A stretch of DNA of 64,000 bases from an uncultured Candidatus Saccharibacteria bacterium (GTDB lineage: Bacteria > Patescibacteriota > Saccharimonadia > Saccharimonadales > 2-12-FULL-41-12), in the NCBI GenBank assembly GCA_964648105.1, contig CAZYMH010000001.1, positions 15,999 through 79,998 on the forward strand. The letters run 5' to 3'. Numbering within the stretch: position 1 is the stretch's first letter; each line of letters begins with the position of its first letter. A program made the position numbers and the translations under genes. Below the pieces are notes generated by a model that was not told the DNA's origin, made no database searches, and worked only from the letters and a program-made list of their open reading frames with translations. This document shows positions 46,201 through 60,390 of the stretch, piece after piece.

Positions 46201-47268
46201 TTAGGCAATAATTCCGCCGCCTACAACCCGTTTGCCGTCATAAATTACTGCCGATTGACCGGCGGCGATTGCTCGCTCGGGGTTATCTAACTTAATTATT
46301 AATTGGTGATTATCGGCTTGTAGACGGCAACCAACTAATGGACCACGGTAGCGAAATCTAACCAGATATTTCGAATCGAAATCTGGTTGACCATTGATAT
46401 AATGAACATCGTTAACAATAATTTTGTCATGCCACAGACTTGCGTCCGATAAATTATTAGTAACGTAAACAATATTTTTGGCAATATCTTTACCAGACAC
46501 ATAATAGGGCAGTCCGCCCCCGATATTTAAGCCATGACGCTGGCCGATTGTATAAAAAATTGCCCCTTCGTGCGTGCCGATTTCAACTCCATTATTATCC
46601 AAAATTGGCCCAGATTCTGCTACAACGTATTGTTTCAGAAAATCTTTTATACCAACTTTCCCTACAAAACATATCCCTTGGCTGTCTTTTTTGTCTGCAG
46701 TATCCAAATTTCGTTCCGAGGCAGCTTGCCGAACATCATTTTTACTCGCAAAATCGCCAATTGGCATAAGTGATTTTGCTAATGCTGACTGCTCTACCCG
46801 ATAAAGAAAATATGTTTGGTCTTTCTCTAGATTATCTGCCATCTGTAGCTCGACTTGGTTTACGAATTTTTTGCTTTTTACAACTTTAGCATAATGGCCT
46901 GTCGCAATCATATCTGCTCCATTTTGGATTGCAGTATCCAAAAATAGCTTAAACTTTACTTCTTGGTTGCACATAATATCAGGGTTTGGCGTGCGACCGA
47001 GCGAATATTCTTGGATCATGTAGTCGACAACTTTTTGTTTGTACTCAGTCTGAAAATCATAGACTTCGAGCTTTATCCCTAAGCTAACTGCAACTCGCTT
47101 GGCATCTTGATAATCTTCATACCACGGGCAAATCATACCTGGCAAATCTTCAGTCCAATTTTTCATGTAGACACCACTCACGTCATAACCTTGTTCAATC
47201 AATAGACTGGCAGTCAACGAGCTGTCGACTCCACCACTCATACCAACAAATACTTTTATATTTTTCAC
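46201..47268 (-). CDS. mnmA: tRNA-specific 2-thiouridylase MnmA
   Basis: 355 aa with PP-loop VGMSGGVDSS and catalytic cysteines in NPDIMCN and DSQGICF. Confidence 0.95.
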   Translation of the reverse strand: MKNIKVFVGMSGGVDSSLTASLLIEQGYDVSGVYMKNWTEDLPGMICPWYEDYQDAKRVAVSLGIKLEVYDFQTEYKQKVVDYMIQEYSLGRTPNPDIMCNQEVKFKLFLDTAIQNGADMIATGHYAKVVKSKKFVNQVELQMADNLEKDQTYFLYRVEQSALAKSLMPIGDFASKNDVRQAASERNLDTADKKDSQGICFVGKVGIKDFLKQYVVAESGPILDNNGVEIGTHEGAIFYTIGQRHGLNIGGGLPYYVSGKDIAKNIVYVTNNLSDASLWHDKIIVNDVHYINGQPDFDSKYLVRFRYRGPLVGCRLQADNHQLIIKLDNPERAIAAGQSAVIYDGKRVVGGGIIA

Positions 47269-47315: not shown

Positions 47316-48215
47316 TTAGTTTTCGTTACGAGCTTCTAAACGTTTACGTAGAGCTTTTAGCTCGTATTTTCGGCCTATGTAGAATGTCGAAATAATCAAC
47401 GGGATTGCTACAGCAGCAGGTATCCATAATATTTTAGTTTTCTCTTGAGTTTTTTGATTTTGTTGGTCGGTTGTTGCCTTGGAGGCATCGGCAGCCGACT
47501 GCGACACAGGTCCGTTAGCTACTGCGACTAATTGCAAGAATGCTACCGCTCCATTTTTATCGACGGCTCTAATAATCAAGTTATAAACACCCGAATTTTG
47601 GTAGACATGTTCGATATTAATCGTACCTGCAAATTGAACACTTTTTAGTTCATCTTGCTTGCCATCACCCCAATCAATCGAGATTGCATAAGGTCCATCA
47701 CCACCAGTTAGCGTTATTGGCCAAGTTAATTTTTGACCAGGATTAGCACCTCTTTTGGCGAAACTCGAAGTTAAGGCGATTTTGGCACCAATATTTATGC
47801 CATTGACAGGAACAGTCACTCTGACTGTGGCTGAATCTGGTCCTGCTTGATCTAAATCGTCGTAGACTCTAGCTACAAGTTCATTAACTCCTGTAAACAA
47901 ATCCATCTTTATCGAAAAGCTGCCGTTATTACACTGTGATGAGCCTGCAAATACATTGTTTTTGAATAATTTAACTAGTGTATTGTTCGGGCAAATACCT
48001 GTCACGGTAATAATAGTGTCAGTTGTTGATGTGCCGTCACGTGGGAATGAAATACTGGCTGCTACAGTTGGCGGCGGCGAAGATATCTTACCCTCTAGTC
48101 CTACCGAACCAGACTCTTGAGCAGCATAAACACCGTTCGATAGTATTAGCCATGTAAATCCAGTAAATACGACTATACCTGTTGCTGCTAAGAGAATTTT
48201 ATTAGTTATTTTCAT
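47316..48215 (-). CDS. exported Ig-like / PKD-like domain protein with C-terminal TM anchor
   Basis: 299 aa with an N-terminal signal/anchor. It has an Ig-like module (ITVTGICPNNTLVKLFKNN...GVNELVARVYD), a PKD-like module (ISIDWGDGKQDE...HVYQNSGVYNLIIRAVDKNG) and a C-terminal helix with basic tail (WIPAAVAIPLIISTFYIGRKYELK). Confidence 0.65.
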   Translation of the reverse strand: MKITNKILLAATGIVVFTGFTWLILSNGVYAAQESGSVGLEGKISSPPPTVAASISFPRDGTSTTDTIITVTGICPNNTLVKLFKNNVFAGSSQCNNGSFSIKMDLFTGVNELVARVYDDLDQAGPDSATVRVTVPVNGINIGAKIALTSSFAKRGANPGQKLTWPITLTGGDGPYAISIDWGDGKQDELKSVQFAGTINIEHVYQNSGVYNLIIRAVDKNGAVAFLQLVAVANGPVSQSAADASKATTDQQNQKTQEKTKILWIPAAVAIPLIISTFYIGRKYELKALRKRLEARNEN

Positions 48216-48264
48216 TTCAAACCACTTATGTATATTTTAGCCTGTTGTTGCAAAAATATCTACT

Positions 48265-48294
48265 AAAAACCCCGAGAATTCTAACTCGGGGTTT
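48265..48294 (-). terminator. rho-independent terminator after the CscA-like gene
   Basis: 10-bp stem AAACCCCGAG (48267-48276) / CTCGGGGTTT (48285-48294). On the minus strand it is followed by UUUU (forward A-run). Confidence 0.7.
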
Positions 48295-48324
48295 AAATTT
48301 AGATTTTAGGATATTATCGATAAT

Positions 48325-49320
48325 CTAGCGTCGACGTCCACCGCTTACATTACCTGCTTTTCGGCGATACAGTAAGTATCCACCAACAACCAATAAGATA
48401 ACTACAGCTGCTAAGATTGCTACAAACCACAATGGTAAGTACCAGAAAGATTTCTTGACGTTAACTACTTCGCCACCGTTGCCGTAAGCAATACCAGCTA
48501 CTACAGTGTATTTGCCAGGCATCTTAACTCCGCTTATTCCATCAGTGAAAATTCTTTTTGATCTTGGCAAAACAATTGCTTTAGGGTCTTTGTTGTTTAG
48601 GTCATATTTACTGATTACTTTAGAGCTTTTTTCGACAGACACTGTTCCAAATGGTCGAGCAAATCCGTTACCTAAGTTTTCGACTGTTATAGAAACGTTT
48701 TTAGGAGTTTCCCAAAAATTTACTTTCTTGTTTTTAGCATTAAGGACACTTACATCATTAACACTGATTTTTTGAGTGATTTCACCTGGCACTTCCAAGA
48801 ATACAAGATGTGCAACACTGGCCGTCAATGACACTTGACGCTTTGTTTCATCAACATTGCCATCAGAAGTTACTGGTATAGCTGCATAACGCAAGGCACC
48901 AAAGTAAGCTCCTGGAGCAGCCGATACAGGCACATTAACGGTATTTTCGATTTGCTTAGTCTCGTTTGGCTTCAACCTAACTGGCGTTAGATTAGTTATC
49001 ATATTTTTCAATGAATAAGCAGTACTGTCTTTTTTGTCATCGATGATAATTGACGGGTTACCAGATGTGTTGTCAGACACAAAGTCGTTAAGGACTACTT
49101 GGGCCTCAACTTCACCTTTAGTGACGTTTTTGATTGTGACACTAAATTTCTTGGTTTCACCACGATTAACACTTATATCAGTTCTGGTTGGTGAAAGCTG
49201 TAAGCCACTACCCCCGTTCTGAGTATTAGAAGTTTGGGCATGCACGAGTGTACCAAAAACAGGCAACATGCTAAATATACCAACTATGGCAAATGTTAGG
49301 GTTTTTTTACTAAAAGACAC
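48325..49320 (-). CDS. cell-surface protein, CscA / DUF916-DUF3324-like architecture (signal peptide, two beta-sandwich-like domains, C-terminal TM anchor)
   Basis: 331 aa with a GTG start and GGAGG 9 nt upstream. Signal peptide ...FGTLVHA. LQLSPTRTDISVNRGETKKFSVTIKNVTKGEVEAQVVLNDF resembles the DUF916 N-terminal pattern. C-terminal anchor WYLPLWFVAILAAVVILLVVGGYLLYRRK. Confidence 0.6.
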   Translation of the reverse strand: MSFSKKTLTFAIVGIFSMLPVFGTLVHAQTSNTQNGGSGLQLSPTRTDISVNRGETKKFSVTIKNVTKGEVEAQVVLNDFVSDNTSGNPSIIIDDKKDSTAYSLKNMITNLTPVRLKPNETKQIENTVNVPVSAAPGAYFGALRYAAIPVTSDGNVDETKRQVSLTASVAHLVFLEVPGEITQKISVNDVSVLNAKNKKVNFWETPKNVSITVENLGNGFARPFGTVSVEKSSKVISKYDLNNKDPKAIVLPRSKRIFTDGISGVKMPGKYTVVAGIAYGNGGEVVNVKKSFWYLPLWFVAILAAVVILLVVGGYLLYRRKAGNVSGGRRR

Positions 49321-49419
49321 GATTTTTTTCCTCCATTTTTGATTTAGCCTTTGACTTTAATAATAAAGAATATATTACCTTTTGTAAATAGTCATAAGAG
49401 CATTAATTAGGAACTAACT

Positions 49420-50463
49420 TTAGAATGAAGCTGTAGCGATATAAGTAAGCGTAGTATTATAAATACCAGCTGGTTGCGAATTAGATACATTTACCAAATA
49501 ACTAACTGTAAATACATTAAAATCTGTCGAGATATTAGCTTTGGAAATAATTTGGTTTTTAAATGTAAACATATTAGGTTGGTTATAATCTGGTTCGATT
49601 GCTGATGAACCTGCCCCACTTGGGTCTAGGCCAACATTTGGCGAAGAATTGGTCCGTAAATTCATACCAAATTGGCTGACTCCTGGGATACTAGTTGTCG
49701 GTGAGTTGAGAGCAGTAATTGCATTAGTACCAGAAGACATTGTAATCCCATAAACAGATGTACTATAGCCAGTTGGATCATTGGTCGCACCAGCATATTG
49801 AGATGTCAAAAATCTTGGTCCAGTTTTAGATAACTCCCCAAAACCAACAAAATCACCATTTGCCGATGAACAATCACCCGCGACCGTTACCCCAACGCAA
49901 AAAGTTAAATATGGTGGCACAAAACCATTGACCGATACTTGATTGACAGTGGCAAAAGCAACTGTACCATCATCGACACGTGGCCCTAAAGCTCCAACTC
50001 CAGAAAAACTAGATACTCTCACAAAAACTGTCTCGGCCGACGAAGGGTTAATAATATTGGCAAAATTATACTGAGCTGGACCAACCGAAGTAAGTCCTGG
50101 CAATCTTGAAACAACAATCTTATTGGCAGTCGTGGCTGGGTCGATGGCAAAACCAGTTTCGCCTGTTTGACTAACCAAATTAGCACTCGAGACATTTAGG
50201 CCAACTGGTGGCACACAAGGTGATCCCACTAAAGGACTGTTGGTACAATATTCAAATTCCAACGAACCGATTGTGTTAACCGATGGATAATCGAACGAGA
50301 AGTTATGAGTGGTATTAGCAGAAACATTGGAGCTACCAATCGCTACACTTCGATTAGTCATTTGAAACGCTTTAGAAGAATATGGGATAAACAGCGTAAT
50401 TGCCAAAAAACTGTATACAGCAACGAATACCCAGTGACTCTTAAGTCTATTCATGTCTAACAT
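49420..50463 (-). CDS. secreted beta-rich surface protein, paralog family member A
   Basis: 347 aa with signal peptide ...YSSKA|FQ. The mature N-terminus MTNRSVAIGSSN, conserved FEYCT, VDDGTVAFATVNQVSVNGFV, FGMNL, and C-terminus GIYNTTLTYIATASF are all shared with ORFs 50544.. and 52202... Confidence 0.65.
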   Translation of the reverse strand: MLDMNRLKSHWVFVAVYSFLAITLFIPYSSKAFQMTNRSVAIGSSNVSANTTHNFSFDYPSVNTIGSLEFEYCTNSPLVGSPCVPPVGLNVSSANLVSQTGETGFAIDPATTANKIVVSRLPGLTSVGPAQYNFANIINPSSAETVFVRVSSFSGVGALGPRVDDGTVAFATVNQVSVNGFVPPYLTFCVGVTVAGDCSSANGDFVGFGELSKTGPRFLTSQYAGATNDPTGYSTSVYGITMSSGTNAITALNSPTTSIPGVSQFGMNLRTNSSPNVGLDPSGAGSSAIEPDYNQPNMFTFKNQIISKANISTDFNVFTVSYLVNVSNSQPAGIYNTTLTYIATASF

Positions 50464-50488
50464 TATACCCCAACATGCTTATGGTCCA

Positions 50489-50521
50489 CAAAAAAATATC
50501 CCCCAAAATTTGGGGGATATT
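50489..50521 (-). terminator. rho-independent terminator after paralog B
   Basis: Perfect 10-bp stem ATATCCCCCA (50496-50505) / TGGGGGATAT (50511-50520). On the minus strand it is followed by a U-run (forward A-run 50490-50495). Confidence 0.75.
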
Positions 50522-50530
50522 AGGTTTTGC

Positions 50531-51370
50531 TTTTATCTATACCCTAAAAGGTAGGTGTTGCAATGAAGGTTGATGCTACTGTGTACGAACCAGTTGGAGT
50601 GGTTGCACTAGCTGTTGCACCAAATCGTAATTTGACTAATTCATCATCGACAACAGTTTGTGAGCTAACTAGGTTAGCAGCTGTGCCTGTGTCATTCCAA
50701 GCATAGGTTGCATTACCGCTTGAGACTTCACAGTTACCTGTGTCAGTTACGGCTGTACCTGAGGCGTTGTTGTATACGCCGTTAACACTACCGTTAGTAC
50801 CGTCGGCACTACCTGCTACAGCACCTAAGTTGGCAGTAGTTCCAGATATACCATGGCCAGAGGCAGCACTGTTGGCGATACAAGTGATTTGCATACCGAA
50901 CATTTCAGAACCAGTTGTAATAGTTGAACCAGTTACTGGAGCACTGACAAAACATTGGTCAGTTAGTGTTGAGGCAATAGCGTCACAGCTAGCACCTGGT
51001 ACACGGAAAGAACGTAGTTGGTTGGTACCTGAGGTGGCGGCACTGGCATAGTATGACACCAATACACCGCTAGAAGCGTTTGTATTAACCATAGCTGCAG
51101 CAAACCGATCATTACCTGTTGAAGTCGGTGGGTTGTTGGCAACTGGCGATTGAACGACAGCATTGTTGTCAATAATACCGATATCGACATTGCTAGATGC
51201 ACTAGCTTCAGATGCAGAACAGTCTGTTGGGTAGTTAGTTGCAGCTGTGCCAGCAGTAGCGTTCGAACCAGCAGCGTTATCTAGAGCAAAGACGCAAAAG
51301 ACTAAACGCTCTTGGACACGACCAGATACGGTAAGTTGGTTAACTATTGAAGCAGCAACTGTACCATCAT
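50531..51370. repeat. 840-bp perfect direct repeat, copy 1
   Basis: By direct line-by-line comparison it is identical to 52189-53028 (offset 1658 bp). It covers the last ~275 codons, the stop and 13 nt of 3' flank of paralog B. The ORF track's duplicated antisense ORFs confirm the identity. Confidence 0.9.
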
Positions 51371-51950
51371 CCACACCTGTAGCAAAAGCTGTGTCTGAGT
51401 AAGTCGAAATACGTACGTAAACACTTGTGTTGTTGCCCGATGGAATCGACGGGTTAGTTACAGCATCTATCTGAATAGATTTGGCAGCTGCAGTTTCGGC
51501 AGTGGCTTGAGTACGAGTTACACAATAAGTTGTAGCTGATGAACCTCCAGCTGATTGTCCCGTACAGCCACCAGTATCGGCACCAGAATATTCAGCAAAA
51601 GCTGTAGCCTGCGAGAAAGTTTGAGTAGCGTTAGTTGAAGCAGTGGTATAACCAACATTCATGCCAGTTGGTAATGTACAGGTACCTAATGGTTGTGTAC
51701 AGAACATAAATGACATACTTTGGATAGCTGTAGAACCTGGCGTAGTAAAGTTGAAGCGGTAGGTTGCACCTGTAGCACTCGGTTGCGACGTCGAAATTAC
51801 GACACTCCGCGAAGTAAGTGTAGCGGCACTAGTATGGCTGGGTAGAACAACCGTCACTAAGCTAGCAAAAGCCATAACGAACGCAAACGCAAAAAACGCT
51901 CCACGTTCAAAAAACCTCTTTGCTAGGTTTATATTAGTAAATTTTAACAT
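50544..51950 (-). CDS. secreted beta-rich surface protein, paralog B (468 aa from the ATG at 51950)
   Basis: The ORF track starts at 51995 (GTG). I prefer the ATG at 51950 because it has AGGAG 10 nt upstream and gives exactly the same length (1407 nt) as paralog C. Signal peptide ...LPSHTSA|A, mature ATLTSRSVVISTSQPSATG..., ends ...SYTVASTFIATPTF. Confidence 0.7.
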   Translation of the reverse strand: MLKFTNINLAKRFFERGAFFAFAFVMAFASLVTVVLPSHTSAATLTSRSVVISTSQPSATGATYRFNFTTPGSTAIQSMSFMFCTQPLGTCTLPTGMNVGYTTASTNATQTFSQATAFAEYSGADTGGCTGQSAGGSSATTYCVTRTQATAETAAAKSIQIDAVTNPSIPSGNNTSVYVRISTYSDTAFATGVDDGTVAASIVNQLTVSGRVQERLVFCVFALDNAAGSNATAGTAATNYPTDCSASEASASSNVDIGIIDNNAVVQSPVANNPPTSTGNDRFAAAMVNTNASSGVLVSYYASAATSGTNQLRSFRVPGASCDAIASTLTDQCFVSAPVTGSTITTGSEMFGMQITCIANSAASGHGISGTTANLGAVAGSADGTNGSVNGVYNNASGTAVTDTGNCEVSSGNATYAWNDTGTAANLVSSQTVVDDELVKLRFGATASATTPTGSYTVASTFIATPTF

Positions 51951-52015
51951 ATTTATATGTCTCCTAAATTTAAACTTGATATTTATTTTAAGCACGATTT
52001 TTTTGTACTGCCTAT

Positions 52016-52045
52016 TTTATAGCATAAGCGATACATTTAGTGCAA
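52016..52045 (-). promoter_or_regulatory. putative sigma70-like promoter of paralog B
   Basis: Minus strand TTGCAC (52045-52040), 18 nt, then TATAAA (52021-52016). The -10 context ATGCTATAAA(A/G)TAGG is shared with the paralog C upstream region. Confidence 0.4.
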
Positions 52046-52107
52046 TAACTTATCCACAGTTTTTTAACACTTTATCAACATCTTTATACTCATTTATCCC
52101 CAATAAT

Positions 52108-52141
52108 TTAAAACACCCCCTTTGTATTAAAGAGGGTGTTT
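52108..52141 (-). terminator. rho-independent terminator after paralog C
   Basis: 13-bp stem at 52111-52123 / 52129-52141. The single mismatch on the plus strand becomes a G-U pair on the minus strand. It is followed on the minus strand by U-rich UUUUAAAUUAUU. Confidence 0.6.
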
Positions 52142-52188
52142 GGGATAAGAACTTAAATGTTCTTTTATAGACACATTTTACTAAAACT

Positions 52189-53028
52189 TTTTATCTATAC
52201 CCTAAAAGGTAGGTGTTGCAATGAAGGTTGATGCTACTGTGTACGAACCAGTTGGAGTGGTTGCACTAGCTGTTGCACCAAATCGTAATTTGACTAATTC
52301 ATCATCGACAACAGTTTGTGAGCTAACTAGGTTAGCAGCTGTGCCTGTGTCATTCCAAGCATAGGTTGCATTACCGCTTGAGACTTCACAGTTACCTGTG
52401 TCAGTTACGGCTGTACCTGAGGCGTTGTTGTATACGCCGTTAACACTACCGTTAGTACCGTCGGCACTACCTGCTACAGCACCTAAGTTGGCAGTAGTTC
52501 CAGATATACCATGGCCAGAGGCAGCACTGTTGGCGATACAAGTGATTTGCATACCGAACATTTCAGAACCAGTTGTAATAGTTGAACCAGTTACTGGAGC
52601 ACTGACAAAACATTGGTCAGTTAGTGTTGAGGCAATAGCGTCACAGCTAGCACCTGGTACACGGAAAGAACGTAGTTGGTTGGTACCTGAGGTGGCGGCA
52701 CTGGCATAGTATGACACCAATACACCGCTAGAAGCGTTTGTATTAACCATAGCTGCAGCAAACCGATCATTACCTGTTGAAGTCGGTGGGTTGTTGGCAA
52801 CTGGCGATTGAACGACAGCATTGTTGTCAATAATACCGATATCGACATTGCTAGATGCACTAGCTTCAGATGCAGAACAGTCTGTTGGGTAGTTAGTTGC
52901 AGCTGTGCCAGCAGTAGCGTTCGAACCAGCAGCGTTATCTAGAGCAAAGACGCAAAAGACTAAACGCTCTTGGACACGACCAGATACGGTAAGTTGGTTA
53001 ACTATTGAAGCAGCAACTGTACCATCAT
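52189..53028. repeat. 840-bp perfect direct repeat, copy 2
   Basis: Identical to 50531-51370. Identity ends abruptly at 53028/51370 (next base g versus c). Beyond that point the two genes are only moderately similar. Confidence 0.9.
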
Positions 53029-53608
53029 GCTGTAAAGTTGCAAAACCAGTGTCACTATATACAGCCATCCTAACGTAGACAGTTGTATTATTGCCCGATG
53101 GAATTGATGGGTTAGTCACAGTGTTGATGACTAGTGTTTTTGCAGCTGTGTCTTCAGCTGTACCTGCTGTTCGAGTTAGACAGTAAGTTGTAGCTGTGTT
53201 ATCACCAGCTGTTCCTTGACCATCACACGAACCTGTGTTGGCACCAGAATATTCTGCAAATGTTGCAGCTTGAGAGAAGCCAGCTTGGCTACCATAAGCA
53301 ACAGTTGAATATCCAACATTCATGCCTGTTGGTAGTACACAAGCACCAAGTGGTGCGGTACAAAACCTAAAGACCAACCCCTGCATGGTAACAGAAGTTG
53401 TCGGTGTAAACTTAAATGTGTAAGTTACACCTGTTGCACTTGGCTGCGACGTAGAGATAGTTACACTACGTGTAGCCAGAGTGTCAGCACTAGCTAGTCC
53501 CTGGAAAGTCATTGGCACTAAGCCAGCAACTGCCATGACAAAAGCTATTGCCATTAAGGATGTACTCTTTAACCGTAAACGAGCGACATCAAAATGATTT
53601 TTTATCAT
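52202..53608 (-). CDS. secreted beta-rich surface protein, paralog C (468 aa)
   Basis: AAGGAGAAAAG immediately upstream of the ATG. Signal peptide ...FQGLASA|D, mature DTLATRSVTISTSQPSATG.... The C-terminal ~275 aa are identical to paralog B. Confidence 0.7.
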   Translation of the reverse strand: MIKNHFDVARLRLKSTSLMAIAFVMAVAGLVPMTFQGLASADTLATRSVTISTSQPSATGVTYTFKFTPTTSVTMQGLVFRFCTAPLGACVLPTGMNVGYSTVAYGSQAGFSQAATFAEYSGANTGSCDGQGTAGDNTATTYCLTRTAGTAEDTAAKTLVINTVTNPSIPSGNNTTVYVRMAVYSDTGFATLQHDGTVAASIVNQLTVSGRVQERLVFCVFALDNAAGSNATAGTAATNYPTDCSASEASASSNVDIGIIDNNAVVQSPVANNPPTSTGNDRFAAAMVNTNASSGVLVSYYASAATSGTNQLRSFRVPGASCDAIASTLTDQCFVSAPVTGSTITTGSEMFGMQITCIANSAASGHGISGTTANLGAVAGSADGTNGSVNGVYNNASGTAVTDTGNCEVSSGNATYAWNDTGTAANLVSSQTVVDDELVKLRFGATASATTPTGSYTVASTFIATPTF

Positions 53609-53652
53609 CTTTTCTCCTTGTTGTTTTTTTGTTTTAGTTAATATGTACCTAC

Positions 53653-53681
53653 TTTATAGCATATGCATTTTAGTAATACAA
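53653..53681 (-). promoter_or_regulatory. putative sigma70-like promoter of paralog C
   Basis: Minus strand TTGTAT (53681-53676), 17 nt, then TATAAA (53658-53653), about 45 nt upstream of the start codon. Confidence 0.45.
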
Positions 53682-53719
53682 GCGATTTTTGATAATAAAT
53701 AAACTTAAACAAGCTAAAA

Positions 53720-54511
53720 TCAAAAAACAGGTATAACAACCAACACATGGTCCAGCCGATACGTACCAGCCGCCGAAATGTTACTGGCTTTGGCAATGTA
53801 GGAAATAGTGTAGTTGGTTTGTCCAACTGCCTGATTACCAGCGGTATTCGGCGAACGAGCAATAATGTCACCAGTGTTAAATTTATATTGATCAGGAGTA
53901 TTATAGCCAGTCTCAATTTTGCCATCAGCAAAACTATTATCAGGTATATTGACAGGGTCAGCACCCATTGAACCTGGAGCTGTATTGGTGGTTAGATTCA
54001 TACCAAACTCTTCGACACTGGCGTTTACACTGGCTGCACCCAGTGTCGATTTTGCTTGCATATATTTGTTGCTTTCATTTTTGGGAGGCAAAGAAGCATT
54101 GACAACTGTATATTCCGATGACAGGTAAGTTCGAACAGTAAATGAACAGTTACACGCTCCAGCTTGAGCTGCTCCATACGAAGGGGTATTGGTTTGCAGG
54201 ACTCCAAAATCAACTGTCGCCCCAGATACGGTCATCTCGAGGTATGGCTCACTTGGCGTAACTCCACCAGCAATTGCATCATAATTATTACTAGATGTAT
54301 TGCCAACTCCCAAAGAGCCTGCTTGCTGTTGTGACCGATAATTATTGGAAGTCGCATCAACTTCTCCACCTGTACCAAAGTACGGTTCTTCCAAGCGATA
54401 ATTATTAGACGATGCCTGTGCGTTAACCAAAGTTGGGTATGCAAAAACCAATAGACTGAGGAGAATTATCGACAAATTATTAATTAATTTTCCCAAAAAA
54501 TTTTGTTTCAT
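53720..54511 (-). CDS. secreted surface protein with N-terminal SNNY repeats, related to the paralog family in its C-terminal half
   Basis: 263 aa with signal peptide ...PTLVNA|Q. There are three S-(S/N)-N-Y repeats (SSNNYRL, TSNNYRS, SSNNYDA). TVSGATVDFGVLQ and FGMNLTTN match family motifs. It ends GTYRLDHVLVVIPVF. Confidence 0.65.
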   Translation of the reverse strand: MKQNFLGKLINNLSIILLSLLVFAYPTLVNAQASSNNYRLEEPYFGTGGEVDATSNNYRSQQQAGSLGVGNTSSNNYDAIAGGVTPSEPYLEMTVSGATVDFGVLQTNTPSYGAAQAGACNCSFTVRTYLSSEYTVVNASLPPKNESNKYMQAKSTLGAASVNASVEEFGMNLTTNTAPGSMGADPVNIPDNSFADGKIETGYNTPDQYKFNTGDIIARSPNTAGNQAVGQTNYTISYIAKASNISAAGTYRLDHVLVVIPVF

Positions 54512-54553
54512 ATATTTAGCGTTTTAAATAATTTTTATTATAACACAAGCGTT

Positions 54554-55231
54554 TTAGCGAGTCTGGAAAGATCTAACCATCTCAGTAAATTCTGAGGCGT
54601 CAGGAACAGCCCGTAAATTGGTGTAATAAAAGGTATAAGTGGCATGAGTGTTATCAGGTCTTTTGATATTAATGGCAGTATCTTTGCCGATTAGACCAAC
54701 CATAACTGTGTAGTTAGTACTGTCAGAATCGCATCTCAGTCTAACATCATTAATAATTACATCTTGAGCATTGACGCTCGATTTATCGCCTAACTTCTTG
54801 ATACAATGATCTGATACAGTCGTTGGATCAAGGCTCATTTCGGTTCCACTCATTCTAACAGGCAAAATCCGATTAGCCTCTAAATTAGCTGGGATTTGAT
54901 TAACATAAATTATCAATTCGTTTACGATCAAATTGGCCTTAATACTTCTATAGACAAATTTATTAGACGTCGACTCATTAGGAATTTCTACCCATCCTTG
55001 TGGAGCCTGAAACTGGAAAAATGGTGATTTCAAGATATTGATCGACGAAGCCATCACGCTAGATGACATGCCTGATTCGACAGGCTTAAATTGGTTGTTT
55101 TTTCTTAAATAATTTATATAAAGAGTCAAACCAATTACAACCGCAACTACTACCACAAAAGTTGATATCAACCTTACCCTAAATACGAATTTTTGCCGTT
55201 TTCGGTAATTTAAGTGATTATTGTATTTCAT
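54554..55231 (-). CDS. hypothetical N-terminally anchored extracytoplasmic protein
   Basis: 225 aa with a basic N-terminus and one TM helix (LISTFVVVVAVVIGLTLYINY). No motif recognised. It is the first gene of the minus-strand surface cluster, divergent from 55384... Confidence 0.55.
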   Translation of the reverse strand: MKYNNHLNYRKRQKFVFRVRLISTFVVVVAVVIGLTLYINYLRKNNQFKPVESGMSSSVMASSINILKSPFFQFQAPQGWVEIPNESTSNKFVYRSIKANLIVNELIIYVNQIPANLEANRILPVRMSGTEMSLDPTTVSDHCIKKLGDKSSVNAQDVIINDVRLRCDSDSTNYTVMVGLIGKDTAINIKRPDNTHATYTFYYTNLRAVPDASEFTEMVRSFQTR

Positions 55232-55383
55232 GTCTGATTTTTATTTAGCCCATATATTAGGCTGCTACATCCCTTATGCTATATTGTTTCACAAATCAAA
55301 ATTAAAGTCTAGCCATTAGCAGTGTTTTTTTGTATGCTTAGATTAAGCAAAAATAACTACAATAGTTTATTTTATGGTGGAAA

Positions 55384-56409
55384 ATGGAAAATAATAATCA
55401 ACCGAAACCAGACGAAAAACCTAACGACAGCTCACTCGCTGATCTTGAGTCAGAATCAACAATAGTTGCCGATGGCTCAGATAGTACATCGATCGACCCT
55501 AACTCATTGGCCAGTGGAACTGCTGATGATTCATCAGCAAAAAAACCCAAAAATAAAAAGGCATATACAGGTGTAAAAGGCTTGGCCGACAAGCTTAATA
55601 TCTATCTACTGCTGTTTATTTTAGTATTAATCATCGCAGGAGTTGTGGCATTTGTCAGCTTTCAAAAGAGTAAAGACGCCAGCAAAAAGCAAAGTCAGCC
55701 TGTCTCAACTACCCCACTTAGCGAGCAAGATCTCGAAAAATTACGCCAAACAGATGTAAAAGTTGGTGACCCAAAACAAATATTGAGCGTTGAGTCTAAC
55801 GCAATTTTTGCTGGCAAAGTACTGATTCGTGACAGCTTAGAAGTTGCTGGTGCTATAAAAGTCGGTGGACCATTAAATCTACCAGGAATTAGCGTATCAG
55901 GAGCTAGTATATTCGATCAAGTTCAGATTAATAACCTCAAGGTCAACTCGAGTGCCACTATTAATGGTCAACTAGGTATTCAGGGCAACACGGCAGTTAG
56001 CGGAAATTTAACTGTTGGAGGAACTATCTCTGCTGGCCGACTAAATATTGAGGTGATGCAGATAAATCAAGATTTACAGTTGTCTAAGCATATCGATGCA
56101 GGCGGTGGTACACCAACATCTAGTAGTGGTGGTGCTTTGGGCGGAGGCGGAACAGCTTCACTTAGCGGAACAGATACCGCTGGTACCATAAATATAAATA
56201 CCGGTGGTGGAACATCTGCAGGTTGTTTTATTAATGTTAATTTCTCTCAAAAATTTAGCTCACCTCACGTAGTTATAACCCCTGTCGGTGGGCCTGCTGG
56301 AGCATTGAATTATTATATCAATCGCTCGCCAACTGGATTTAGTGTTTGTACCAGCAATCCTGCCCCAGTTGGGCAGAATTTTGCCTTCGATTATATTGTA
56401 ATCGACTAG
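55384..56409 (+). CDS. membrane-anchored repetitive fibre-like protein with Gly-rich segment and lectin-like C-terminal domain
   Basis: 341 aa: an acidic N-terminus, a TM helix (LNIYLLLFILVLIIAGVVAFVSF), short beta-helix-like repeats (VAGAIKVGGPLNLPGISVSGASIF...INGQLGIQGNTAVSGNLTVGGTISAG) and a GGG-rich tract. The C-terminus INVNFSQKFSSPHVVITP...TGFSVCT...FAFDYIVID resembles H-type lectin / tail-fibre tip domains (from memory). Confidence 0.6.
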   Translation: MENNNQPKPDEKPNDSSLADLESESTIVADGSDSTSIDPNSLASGTADDSSAKKPKNKKAYTGVKGLADKLNIYLLLFILVLIIAGVVAFVSFQKSKDASKKQSQPVSTTPLSEQDLEKLRQTDVKVGDPKQILSVESNAIFAGKVLIRDSLEVAGAIKVGGPLNLPGISVSGASIFDQVQINNLKVNSSATINGQLGIQGNTAVSGNLTVGGTISAGRLNIEVMQINQDLQLSKHIDAGGGTPTSSSGGALGGGGTASLSGTDTAGTININTGGGTSAGCFINVNFSQKFSSPHVVITPVGGPAGALNYYINRSPTGFSVCTSNPAPVGQNFAFDYIVID

Positions 56410-56414
56410 TTTAC

Positions 56415-56798
56415 CTAAACATCCAAAAAGACAGTCACTCGATTTTTTCTAACATGCATAATACCGCGAGCAATCCGAACTTTCTTGTCACCCGTTTTTG
56501 ATGATCTAATCGTAATCTCGCTTGGTACTAACAGAGTAATAAAGTTGTGGTGCCGCGGCAAAATGTCGAATGGCCCAGTTAGATTTTCGGCCGATATACT
56601 TTCGGCGTCCTCATCATAATAATTTCGATACGGCGAATAAATTTTTACATGAACAGTTGTGGCCGCATTAAACTCATCTTCAGCGGCTTTATTTTTAGCC
56701 TTTTTTTCTTCTTTGGACATGTCTGATTTAGTACTAGCTTGAGCAACTTGCTCAGCTTGTGGTGCTGGAGTATTTTCTGCTTTTGTTTCGTCGCTCAT
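56415..56798 (-). CDS. atpC: F-type ATPase epsilon subunit (N-terminally extended)
   Basis: 127 aa. After a ~45-aa K/E/A-rich extension come VHVKIYSPYRNYYDEDAESISAENLTGPFDILPRHHNFITLL...GIMHVRKNRVTVFLD, which matches the epsilon beta-sandwich pattern (G.fGILp.H.p.it.L). Last gene of the atp run. Confidence 0.7.
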   Translation of the reverse strand: MSDETKAENTPAPQAEQVAQASTKSDMSKEEKKAKNKAAEDEFNAATTVHVKIYSPYRNYYDEDAESISAENLTGPFDILPRHHNFITLLVPSEITIRSSKTGDKKVRIARGIMHVRKNRVTVFLDV

Positions 56799-56801
56799 AG
56801 C

Positions 56802-58965
<2,164 letters not shown>

Positions 58966-58969
<4 letters not shown>

Positions 58970-60390
58970 TTTTTAAGCTCCACTTTCGATTTTTCTAGGA
59001 GTTGGTTGCGTATCGGCTCAAAATCTTCATCTTTTTGAATTTTGGCAGCGAACTCTCTGACATTTGCCTTCAGGGCATCGACATCAATTTTTACTTCTGG
59101 ATCAGTATTAAGCACAATATCCATCATCAGTTGCTGCTCGTTCAAAGAGAAAATCTCCGATGGGCCTTGGTTTAGAATCTTAAATATATTTTTGCCTCTT
59201 TCGAGAGCAATTTTCGACTCGAGGGCTAATTCGCTACCAAAGTGCGAGAATTCCTCAGCTTCTCGGTAGGCTGCCAGAGTTTTTAAGGTAGTCGCCGCTA
59301 AGCCTTTTTGGCGTTTGTTATGACCAACGCCACCAATACGGGTCACACTCAAACCAGTGTTCATCGCTGGTCTAATACCGCTCCTAAAGATATCCATATC
59401 CAAAATCCACTGTCCGTCGGTAATCGACATAATGTTGGTTGGCAAATAAGCAGTAATGTCGCCGTTAGCCGCATGAACCAACGGAATTGAAGTTAGACAT
59501 TTGCCGTTGCGTTCCAAACGTCCCGCTCGCTCCAATAAGCTCGAATGTGCATAAAACATGTCACCTGGGTAACTATCACGTCCTGGGCTAGTTCCCATCA
59601 AAAGGGCCATTTCCCTCAGGGCATGAGCGTGAGAAGTTAAATCATCATAAATAATTATTGTGTCCATATCTTTTTCTTGCCAAAAATACTCGGCCATGGC
59701 ACAGCCGACATACGGTGCAATGTAGCTCATCACCAATGATTCAAACATCGTCGAGACAATTACCACAGCTGTTTTTAAAGACTCAGTTTCTTGAAGTTTC
59801 GATAACAGATCATCAACATCACTTCGACGCTTAGCAATCAGTACGTAAACCACGATTTGATCAGTTGTTTTTTGATTGATGGTAAGCTGGGTGGCCATTG
59901 TACTTTTACCACTTTTACCATCACCCAAAATAGCAATACGCTGTCCTCTAACAACAGGGAAAATTCCATCGATAGCCGTAATACCACTTTCTAGTTGACG
60001 CTCAAGCAATTTACGTTCATACAGCGGCGGTGCAACACTAAATACCTTGCGAGTTGTATCTGGTGCAATCGAGCCTTTACCATCCAATGGTTCACCATTA
60101 ACGGTTATAACTCGTCCAATAAAATCTTTGCCCACTTTACATACTAATTCTTGATGCTGAACAACTGCCATCATACCAACTTTTAGGGTTTTTGCTCCTA
60201 GGTGCAGTACGACCACGGTTTCTTCGGTAACTTCCTGAACAAAGCCTTTACTGCCGTCTTCGAACATAACAAGGGCATGAACACTAATCGGCTGCAAACC
60301 GCGAATATTAATCAAGAATTTATCAACCGACACGATATCTCCGACAGGCTGACCGCTGGCTACCATTTTTTCAAAATGCTGTTGGCTCAC
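58966..60390 (-). CDS. atpA: F-type ATPase alpha subunit (short, divergent)
   Basis: 474 aa with Walker [52 protein letters not shown] and [17 protein letters not shown], all alpha-type motifs. Confidence 0.9.

Follow-up and report, generated by a model that had tools for sequence, protein, structure and literature searches.

How do two neighbouring genes come to be identical, base for base, over their 3' parts and only about two-thirds identical immediately upstream? The question is raised by two tandem genes, par1 and par2, in a stretch of 64,000 nucleotides (nt) of contig CAZYMH010000001.1 (hereafter the window), which belongs to a metagenome-assembled genome (MAG) of an uncultured Candidatus Saccharibacteria bacterium. 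Its gene content identifies a pam pilus operon, from a Saccharimonadia bacterium (Candidate Phyla Radiation (CPR)/Patescibacteria), in which par1 and par2 appear to encode PamA-like major pilins, a label that we derive from their size, from a gene order deduced from accession order and from homology to the neighbouring pilin. Our analysis indicates that the pair very likely goes back to an old tandem duplication of pamA in this operon, followed by a very recent interlocus gene conversion that spanned 840 bp and most likely copied par1 onto par2. Coordinates are positions in the window, and the shared block and both pilin genes lie on its minus strand (Table 1).

Comparison of the window with itself upheld the limits of the 840-bp block described in the initial annotation. 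Its two copies, offset by 1658 bp, match at every base, and all other exact runs common to the two 1658-bp units are 15 nt or shorter. The block consists of 2 nt of codon 194, 274 codons (residues 195-468), the stop codon and 13 nt of 3' flank. Scored in 60-nt intervals, nucleotide identity is 63-82% on the 5' side of the block, rises abruptly to 100% and is gone 13 nt past the stop codon; because background identity is about 66%, an exact run of 840 nt cannot be attributed to chance. The reported sharp drop to about two-thirds identity upstream also held, at 63% of amino acids and 65.6% of nucleotides in the N-terminal domain (here and below the mature domain at codons 40-194, with domains divided by multiple-alignment coordinates after a motif-based split had proved unreliable), and in the signal-peptide region identity falls to 32.5% and 55%, respectively. 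The claim that all flanks differ stood only in part: the downstream sequences and their terminator-like hairpins do differ, but the upstream regions are partly alike, with 80% identity over 60 nt between 53677-53618 and 52046-51965, including a 15-nt exact run. The outer edges of the block reappear in two Logan contigs (k=31 assemblies of SRA runs SRR13355621 and SRR13355620), both 100% identical to the window: the first, L082, ends at window position 52999 and the second, L083, starts at 50560, each exactly 30 nt (k-1) inside an outer block edge. Because de Bruijn contigs stop k-1 nt inside a repeat that has two contexts, these edges represent true branch points in the raw reads.

To which part of the protein does the block correspond? 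Pam pili are chaperone-assisted, donor-strand-exchange pili of Ca. Mycosynbacter amalyticus described in 2026 by electron cryomicroscopy, in whose pilins a nine-strand N-terminal beta-sandwich is joined by a single linker strand, which each subunit donates to its neighbour, to a C-terminal acceptor domain of truncated immunoglobulin (Ig)-like type, the linker and its binding site being the most conserved parts (Troman et al., bioRxiv 10.64898/2026.03.03.709456). The same layout of N-terminal domain, linker and C-terminal domain is matched by a conserved segment at residues 196-222 and by an AlphaFold2 model of par2, which is all-beta with two domains (mean predicted local distance difference test score 77), showing confident strands at 48-203, a low-confidence stretch at 205-212 and a second strand-rich region at 216-466. 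The block begins at D194/G195, on the N-terminal border of the stretch in which invariant columns of the family lie most densely (G196-A222, with invariant positions G196, V198, A199, L206, G210, Q213-L216, F218, C219 and A222). Because the boundary of the tract coincides with a structural domain boundary of the pilin, the homogenised part can be read as a polymerisation module: by analogy with the Pam pilins, the block would comprise the donated linker strand and the entire acceptor domain, making the module complete. The suggestion in the initial annotation of a constant C-terminal and a variable N-terminal module fits this boundary and a junction that recurs in two related loci (L002 and L048), but it does not extend to a fixed rule, as one relative (L014) shows the reverse arrangement and in others the tract covers the whole mature protein.

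The 5' and 3' parts of the pair also differ in apparent age. Between the N-terminal domains of par1 and par2, synonymous divergence (dS) is 1.23 and nonsynonymous divergence (dN) 0.31 (omega, their ratio, 0.25), whereas dS in the block is 0, so that the duplication must be old and the identity of the block very recent. The closest locus from another genome, L009 (CAZTQB010000002.1), is collinear with the window from the ATP synthase genes to beyond mnmA and has one large pilin gene; its Pam proteins are 79-85% identical to those of the window, and its ATP synthase subunits about 95%. Amino acid identity between par2 and this gene is 78% in the signal peptide (dN 0.16, dS 0.54), 87% in the N-terminal domain (dN 0.07, dS 1.05) and 64% in the C-terminal domain (dN 0.25, dS 2.76). 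The N-terminal domain of par1 is 61% identical to that of L009 (dN 0.33), which is about the same divergence as between the C-terminal domains of par2 and L009. Within the tract, paralogs are thus closer than orthologs (100% between par1 and par2, 64% to L009), and in the N-terminal domain the reverse holds (63% between the paralogs, 87% between par2 and L009). Because the L009 gene is orthologous to par2 in its 5' half only, par1 is the better candidate for donor and par2 for recipient, and on these comparisons the transfer probably ran from par1 to par2.

A second line of evidence comes from related loci in which both copies could be followed across genomes. In a four-taxon test of L022 and L048, signal peptides group by position (66% identity between the upstream copies and 75% between the downstream copies, against 33-40% within a genome), and the C-terminal domains of one genome resemble each other most (100% identity in L022 and 93% in L048, compared with 89% across genomes). 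The N-terminal domains of L022 are identical to each other, and both are nearer to the downstream copy of L048 (84%) than to its upstream copy (63%); within L048 they are 69% identical. Together with the contrast in dS and the orthology of L009 to the 5' half of par2, this pattern bears out the proposal, made from the window sequence at the outset, that recent gene conversion rather than a simple old duplication produced the block.

The process recurs in many related loci. Unrelated studies have yielded at least 15 other loci with a tandem pair of a pamA-like gene; where 1.8 kb or more of flank was available on either side (24 related loci), eight loci have two tandem copies, and eight more multi-copy loci lie at contig ends. 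Exact or near-exact tracts within such pairs measure 1370 nt in L062, 1323 in L006, 1265 in L033, 1172 in L017, 1155 in L022, 484 in L014 and 292 in L002, and patchy tracts recur in L002, L006, L014, L015, L017, L022, L033, L048 and L062 (apparent 100% segments in L008, L012, L013, L040 and L043 were artefacts of overlapping flank intervals and were disregarded). Most of the five longest tracts (L006, L017, L022, L033 and L062) start directly behind the signal peptide, between reference codons 46 and 61, and in L062 the tract also spans most of the signal-peptide region. L014 and L015 carry patchworks of segments at 100% and at 76-88%, and stretches at 96-100% alternate along L015 with stretches at 68-77%. 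The junction of the window pair is found again in L002 and L048, where identity increases at codons 182-208; one protein pair from the L002 contig (P0018/P0042) is 45% identical in its N-terminal and 90% in its C-terminal domain, and the corresponding values for P0044/P0046 are 64% and 98%. Across 118 family members, the distance matrices of the N- and C-terminal domains correlate with r of 0.47, compared with 0.86 ± 0.01 for random column splits and 0.70-0.73 for halves within a domain; given this difference from random splits, the two domains have partly separate histories family-wide. A metagenome scan with par1 as a single query returned no match, and an alignment query returned only relatives at no more than 61% identity, so that neither scan yielded additional contigs from this population.

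Several of these loci have features of their own. In L006, L017, L022 and L033 the copies are identical from shortly behind the signal-peptide cleavage site to the stop codon, their signal peptides are 26-42% identical, and the signal-peptide types are kept by position across species. L014 (JAXLZX010000001.1, 9886-12792) has an identical N-terminal domain, with its exact run of 484 nt, and a C-terminal domain at 91.5%, the reverse of the window pair. L002 (CAZIMF010000003.1, 6994-12797) holds three tandem copies, of which the first and third do not differ at all over the 1132 nt that can be compared up to the contig end and the middle one has another N-terminal domain (47% of amino acids identical) and a C-terminal domain at 90% identity.

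We propose that a large PamA-like pilin gene was duplicated in tandem long ago and that, much later, non-reciprocal homologous recombination between direct repeats 1.66 kb apart copied 840 bp of one gene onto the other, a step that would depend on RecA-type recombination. A conversion tract would run only as far as the two sequences can pair. With N-terminal DNA at about 66% identity and exact runs of at most 15 nt, the junction between N-terminal domain and linker would form a self-reinforcing barrier, and the dissimilar 3' flanks would halt the tract 13 nt past the stop codon; on either side the tract ends where homology is lost. The outcome would be two pilins with an identical donor strand and acceptor groove and with differing N-terminal domains and signal peptides. 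By analogy with Pam pilins, the two should be interchangeable for chaperone binding and polymerisation, and they may co-polymerise in one filament; the N-terminal domain may touch the host, and there may be selective value in keeping two such domains.

The phenomenon itself is a known process, interlocus gene conversion or concerted evolution, in a newly described pilus family. As in other tandem paralogs subject to such conversion, part of the pair is identical while the rest is old, the tract ends where homology drops, and the pattern recurs in related lineages. Gene conversion also keeps paralogs such as tufA and tufB of Salmonella evolving in concert. Concerted evolution is further exemplified by the mosaic divergence of the tandem HMA4 copies of Arabidopsis halleri (PMC3749932; bioRxiv 10.1101/2025.10.29.685298), from which the present case differs in that its tract boundary is a domain boundary of a pilus subunit. 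The description of the Pam system makes no mention of paralogs, duplication or recombination (bioRxiv 10.64898/2026.03.03.709456), and our search of the literature turned up no account of gene conversion in pilins of Saccharibacteria.

Some observations weigh against parts of this interpretation. Donor and recipient were assigned from a single sister genome, the nearest relatives of either C-terminal domain reach only about 68% identity, and it could be the C-terminal domain of L009 that was replaced instead; conversion is nevertheless required whichever of par2 and L009 had its C-terminal half replaced. The omega of 0.25 in the N-terminal domain gives no sign of positive selection. The donor strand was placed by analogy with the published Pam structures, the copy of the PDB that we searched holding no solved Pam structure; PDB sequence searches with par2 and the 347-amino-acid pilin returned no relative, and a Foldseek search of the PDB with the par2 model returned nothing more specific than Ig-like adhesins and pilins, at TM-scores of 0.2 or below. 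Pfam has no family for par1 or par2, which score only 16.2 and 11.7 bits against the Pam pilin model NF058581 (cutoff 55). Because these NCBIfam scores are weak, the family assignment depends on gene context and on profile-profile homology: a 35-sequence profile of the par1/par2 family can be aligned along its entire length with that of the adjacent 347-amino-acid pilin (hhalign probability 99%, E 9.5e-18), with a motif ...PxGxYxxxxTYIAT..F common to both C-termini and the roughly 100 extra par residues appearing as insertions. Finally, the inner junctions (from block through intergenic sequence to par1, and from the par1 N-terminal domain to block) lack a second assembly, exact-protein look-ups of P0003, P0002 and the 347-amino-acid pilin gave no match, and the assembler of the MAG contig could have wiped out a few true differences between near-identical copies.

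The alternative that survives best, improbable as we consider it, is that the whole gene was duplicated in tandem recently and that the 5' half of one copy, including signal peptide, N-terminal domain and upstream region, was then imported from another strain or lineage, leaving the block as the remnant of the duplication. Near-whole-gene identity does exist in some relatives (L006, and L062 with its signal peptide included), the N- and C-terminal domains have uncoupled histories in the family as a whole, contig L001 (discussed below) suggests exchange between lineages at this locus, and the par1 signal peptide has no close relative (35% identity at best). Were the block the native C-terminal domain of par2, however, it should be about 87-90% identical to that of L009, in line with the remainder of the gene and the operon, and the observed value is 64%, with dN of 0.25 there as opposed to 0.07 in the N-terminal domain. 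The two signal-peptide types are, moreover, old and specific to position, as L022 and L048 show, and the residual similarity between the upstream regions of par1 and par2 fits an old duplication that included the promoter.

It is very unlikely that the pair is an assembly artefact, created either by stitching strain alleles of one gene in tandem or by collapsing diverged copies over the block. Such a suspicion arises naturally from a metagenome-assembled contig, the more so as L001, from another metagenome, shows a single-copy path and many MAG contigs of the family break inside a pamA-like gene. Yet what lies upstream of par1 is not pamT but the 3' end of the block with a terminator-like hairpin and a unique spacer; because alleles of one locus would share pamT upstream, par1 and par2 are not stitched alleles. 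The two Logan contigs stop k-1 nt inside both outer edges, as a genuine repeat requires, and the tandem pairs of the at least 15 other loci were obtained by different studies with different assemblers and retain position-specific signal peptides. Some of these pairs, at 86-95% identity, cannot have arisen by collapse.

The least probable of the alternatives, to which we assign hardly any weight, is programmed antigenic or phase variation, with one copy serving as donor cassette for frequent switching; the initial annotation had named cassette-type variation as one option. Mycoplasma genitalium recombines paralogous adhesin sequences at MgPa and MgPar (PMC2169797). Systems of this type carry variable segments at high frequency from silent, truncated cassettes into a single expression site, as with pilS and pilE of Neisseria. 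The window pair resembles both systems in that non-reciprocal recombination of paralogous sequences for a surface filament or adhesin yields mosaic genes, and the setting is suggestive: the products belong to the surface filaments of an obligate epibiont or parasite, recombination at the locus is recurrent, and L001 may represent a copy-number variant. But par1 and par2 are full-length genes, and both have a signal peptide, a ribosome-binding site, a promoter-like site and a terminator-like hairpin; the segment transferred is the conserved module and not the variable one; the 64-kb window holds two copies only, with no truncated cassettes; and no G-quadruplex motif was found on either strand of the window, nor any inverted repeat within 48000-56000. 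Cassette-type variation in the pilE/pilS sense is accordingly not upheld. A diversity-generating retroelement, shufflon or invertase was rejected, the repeat being direct, exact and 840 nt long and inverted repeats being absent from that same interval.

If conversion between the tandem copies created an exact repeat, the repeat could also serve as a substrate for loss of the 1658-bp unit, as the initial annotation proposed, and one metagenome contig has exactly the sequence that such a deletion would leave. L001 (JGI 3300027924, Ga0268731_1013046; 2903 nt) has a gene for a protein identical to par2; starting at position 271, it matches window positions 53872-52189 without a difference and then, again at 100%, 50530-49582, so that it corresponds to the tandem minus one 1658-bp unit (par1), which is what unequal crossing-over within the block would be expected to leave. 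Up to nt 275, in the 5' part of pamT, L001 is 100% identical to L009 9485-9759 and 24% diverged from window positions 54142-53868. Where the contig switches from one source sequence to the other, just 5 bases are common to both, in register. An overlap of 5 nt is too short for a k-mer assembly chimera, which makes a real inter-lineage recombinant within pamT plausible, although a single short metagenome contig cannot establish it and the proposed deletion is to the same extent short of proof. On a more speculative reading, taken up below and rather unlikely, L001 would represent a genuine deletion-plus-recombination haplotype with a pamT 5' end from the sister lineage, and the exact repeat would let populations switch between one- and two-pilin states by loss or gain of the 1658-bp unit.

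What does conversion between these genes imply for the pili? It is conceivable, although we regard it as rather unlikely, that selection maintains the homogenised linker and C-terminal domain as a module matched to a shared chaperone and partner pilin, with the N-terminal domains as alternative surfaces for host contact or for evasion of phage or host defence. If so, the tandem pamA pair would play the role of PamA and PamB of M. amalyticus in a lineage without pamB or pamC at the locus. More generally, the pamA-like major pilin gene is often tandemly duplicated and its copies evolve in concert by gene conversion, with partly separate histories of N-terminal domain and polymerisation module; whole-gene pilin phylogenies will mix two signals. 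The N-terminal domain is likely the specificity determinant or variable surface and so offers host-range experiments something definite to aim at. In one cultivated CPR parasite, Pam pili reportedly rank among the most abundant proteins, and they are presumed to establish first contact with the host.

Recurrent exact repeats also bear on how such loci are recovered. MAG and metagenome contigs that end inside or beside a pamA-like gene include L007, L016, L024-L032 and several metagenome loci, and the Logan contigs from the window's own population likewise break off at the edges of the block. Exact intragenomic repeats in the pamA-like gene thus probably fragment assemblies systematically and hide extra copies; because such repeats break short-read assemblies, the copy number of pamA in MAGs is underestimated.

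The genes around the pair place it in a Pam system. The order of the operon is pamT, par2, par1, the gene for a smaller pilin, that for a putative membrane-anchored chaperone, and pamR, with the ATP synthase genes adjoining (Table 1).

Table 1. Positions of the pilin genes, the shared block and neighbouring features in the window
Feature	Position	Strand	Description
par1 (P0002)	50544..51950	-	468 amino acids, downstream PamA-like major pilin; likely donor of the C-terminal domain
par2 (P0001)	52202..53608	-	468 amino acids, upstream PamA-like major pilin
Block copy A	50531..51370	-	3' 827 nt of par1 plus 13 nt of flank; conserved linker segment and whole C-terminal domain
Block copy B	52189..53028	-	3' 827 nt of par2 plus 13 nt of flank; likely conversion recipient
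par1 variable 5' part	51371..51950	-	Signal peptide and N-terminal beta-sandwich domain
par2 variable 5' part	53029..53608	-	Signal peptide and N-terminal beta-sandwich domain; 87-88% amino acid identity to P0003/L009
Terminator-like hairpin and T-run after par1	50495..50521	-	Intrinsic type; starts 10 nt past the block end
Terminator-like hairpin after par2	52116..52135	-	Sequence unlike that after par1
Sigma-70-like promoter match upstream of par1	51985..52014	-	Consensus match only
Sigma-70-like promoter match upstream of par2	53667..53695	-	Consensus match overlapping a 15-nt run also present upstream of par1
mnmA	46201..47268	-	Directly after pamR
pamR, RbmA-like terminator/anchor	47316..48215	-	NCBIfam NF058578, 377.7 bits (cutoff 300)
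Putative membrane-anchored pilus chaperone (PamC/PamD-like)	48325..49320	-	Pfam WxLIP_PGBD, 32.7 bits (cutoff 27.3)
Smaller Pam pilin	49420..50463	-	347 amino acids; NF058581 CPR_Pam_pilin_C, 137 bits (cutoff 55)
pamT-like tip pilin	53720..54511	-	Single truncated Ig-like domain; NF058579, E 5e-66, 222.4 bits full length (cutoff 240)
225-amino-acid gene	54554..55231		Upstream of pamT; 64% identical in L009; without family assignment
Conserved gene	55384..56409	opposite	At the position of the tail-fibre-like gene in the Pam description; no family match
atpA, atpG, atpD, atpC	56415..60390		ATP synthase genes

The M. amalyticus set comprises the pilins PamA, PamB, PamE and PamT, the chaperones PamC and PamD and the anchor PamR (bioRxiv 10.64898/2026.03.03.709456; NF058578, NF058579, NF058581), and pam operons adjoin ATP synthase genes and a tail-fibre-like gene (bioRxiv 10.64898/2026.03.03.709456). 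The window shares with that system its gene set and order (a pamT-like gene, the large and then the smaller pilin, a putative chaperone ending in a membrane-helix-like stretch, and pamR), the ATP synthase neighbourhood, a conserved gene at the tail-fibre-like position and two-domain pilins with a highly conserved linker. The large pilin exceeds the small one by insertions, as described for PamA relative to PamB, and all relatives found come from CPR bacteria: 30 of the 31 related genome loci carry titles of Saccharibacteria, Saccharimonadia, Saccharimonadales or Patescibacteria, and the remaining one (isolate ELA335) is titled 'bacterium'. Unlike in M. amalyticus, the large pilin is tandemly duplicated here, with its linker and C-terminal domain gene-converted; par1 and par2 fall below the NCBIfam cutoff for the pilin domain, and PamT just below its own, its protein scoring 100 bits against NF058581 (cutoff 55); and mnmA follows pamR, without PamB or PamC genes. 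A tblastn search of the 64-kb window found no PamB-like gene or second chaperone gene, and none follows pamR. If accession order reflects gene order, the par1/par2 pair takes, by size and order, the place of PamA in M. amalyticus, the 347-amino-acid pilin occupies the position of PamE, and mnmA sits where M. amalyticus would have pamB and pamC.

With chaperone-usher pili (Pap/Fim), according to the Pam description, Pam pili share donor-strand exchange into a truncated Ig-like acceptor and a PapD/FimC-like chaperone (bioRxiv 10.64898/2026.03.03.709456). They differ in that Pam pilins add an N-terminal domain and donate an internal linker rather than an N-terminal extension, and in that the Pam system has membrane-anchored chaperones and no usher; our Foldseek search gave no specific structural match.

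Each of the two pilin genes has its own set of candidate flanking signals, so placed that par1 and par2 are likely transcribed separately, although the number of promoter-like matches in the region is not above that expected from shuffled sequence. We place the start of par1 at the ATG at 51950, 10 nt after AGGAG; the mechanical list of open reading frames extends it to a GTG at 51995. The 15-nt exact match upstream of the two genes lies at 53665-53679 and at about 52030-52046, and both upstream regions hold ATGCTATAAA, which resembles an extended -10 element.

The translation of the putative chaperone gene begins with a signal sequence and ends with a hydrophobic stretch followed by basic residues. 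This protein passes the threshold of the Pfam family WxLIP_PGBD (PF06030), the WxL-interacting domain of surface-protein clusters in Firmicutes, a match that hints at an evolutionary link, absent from the Pam description, between Pam chaperones and WxL-cluster proteins.

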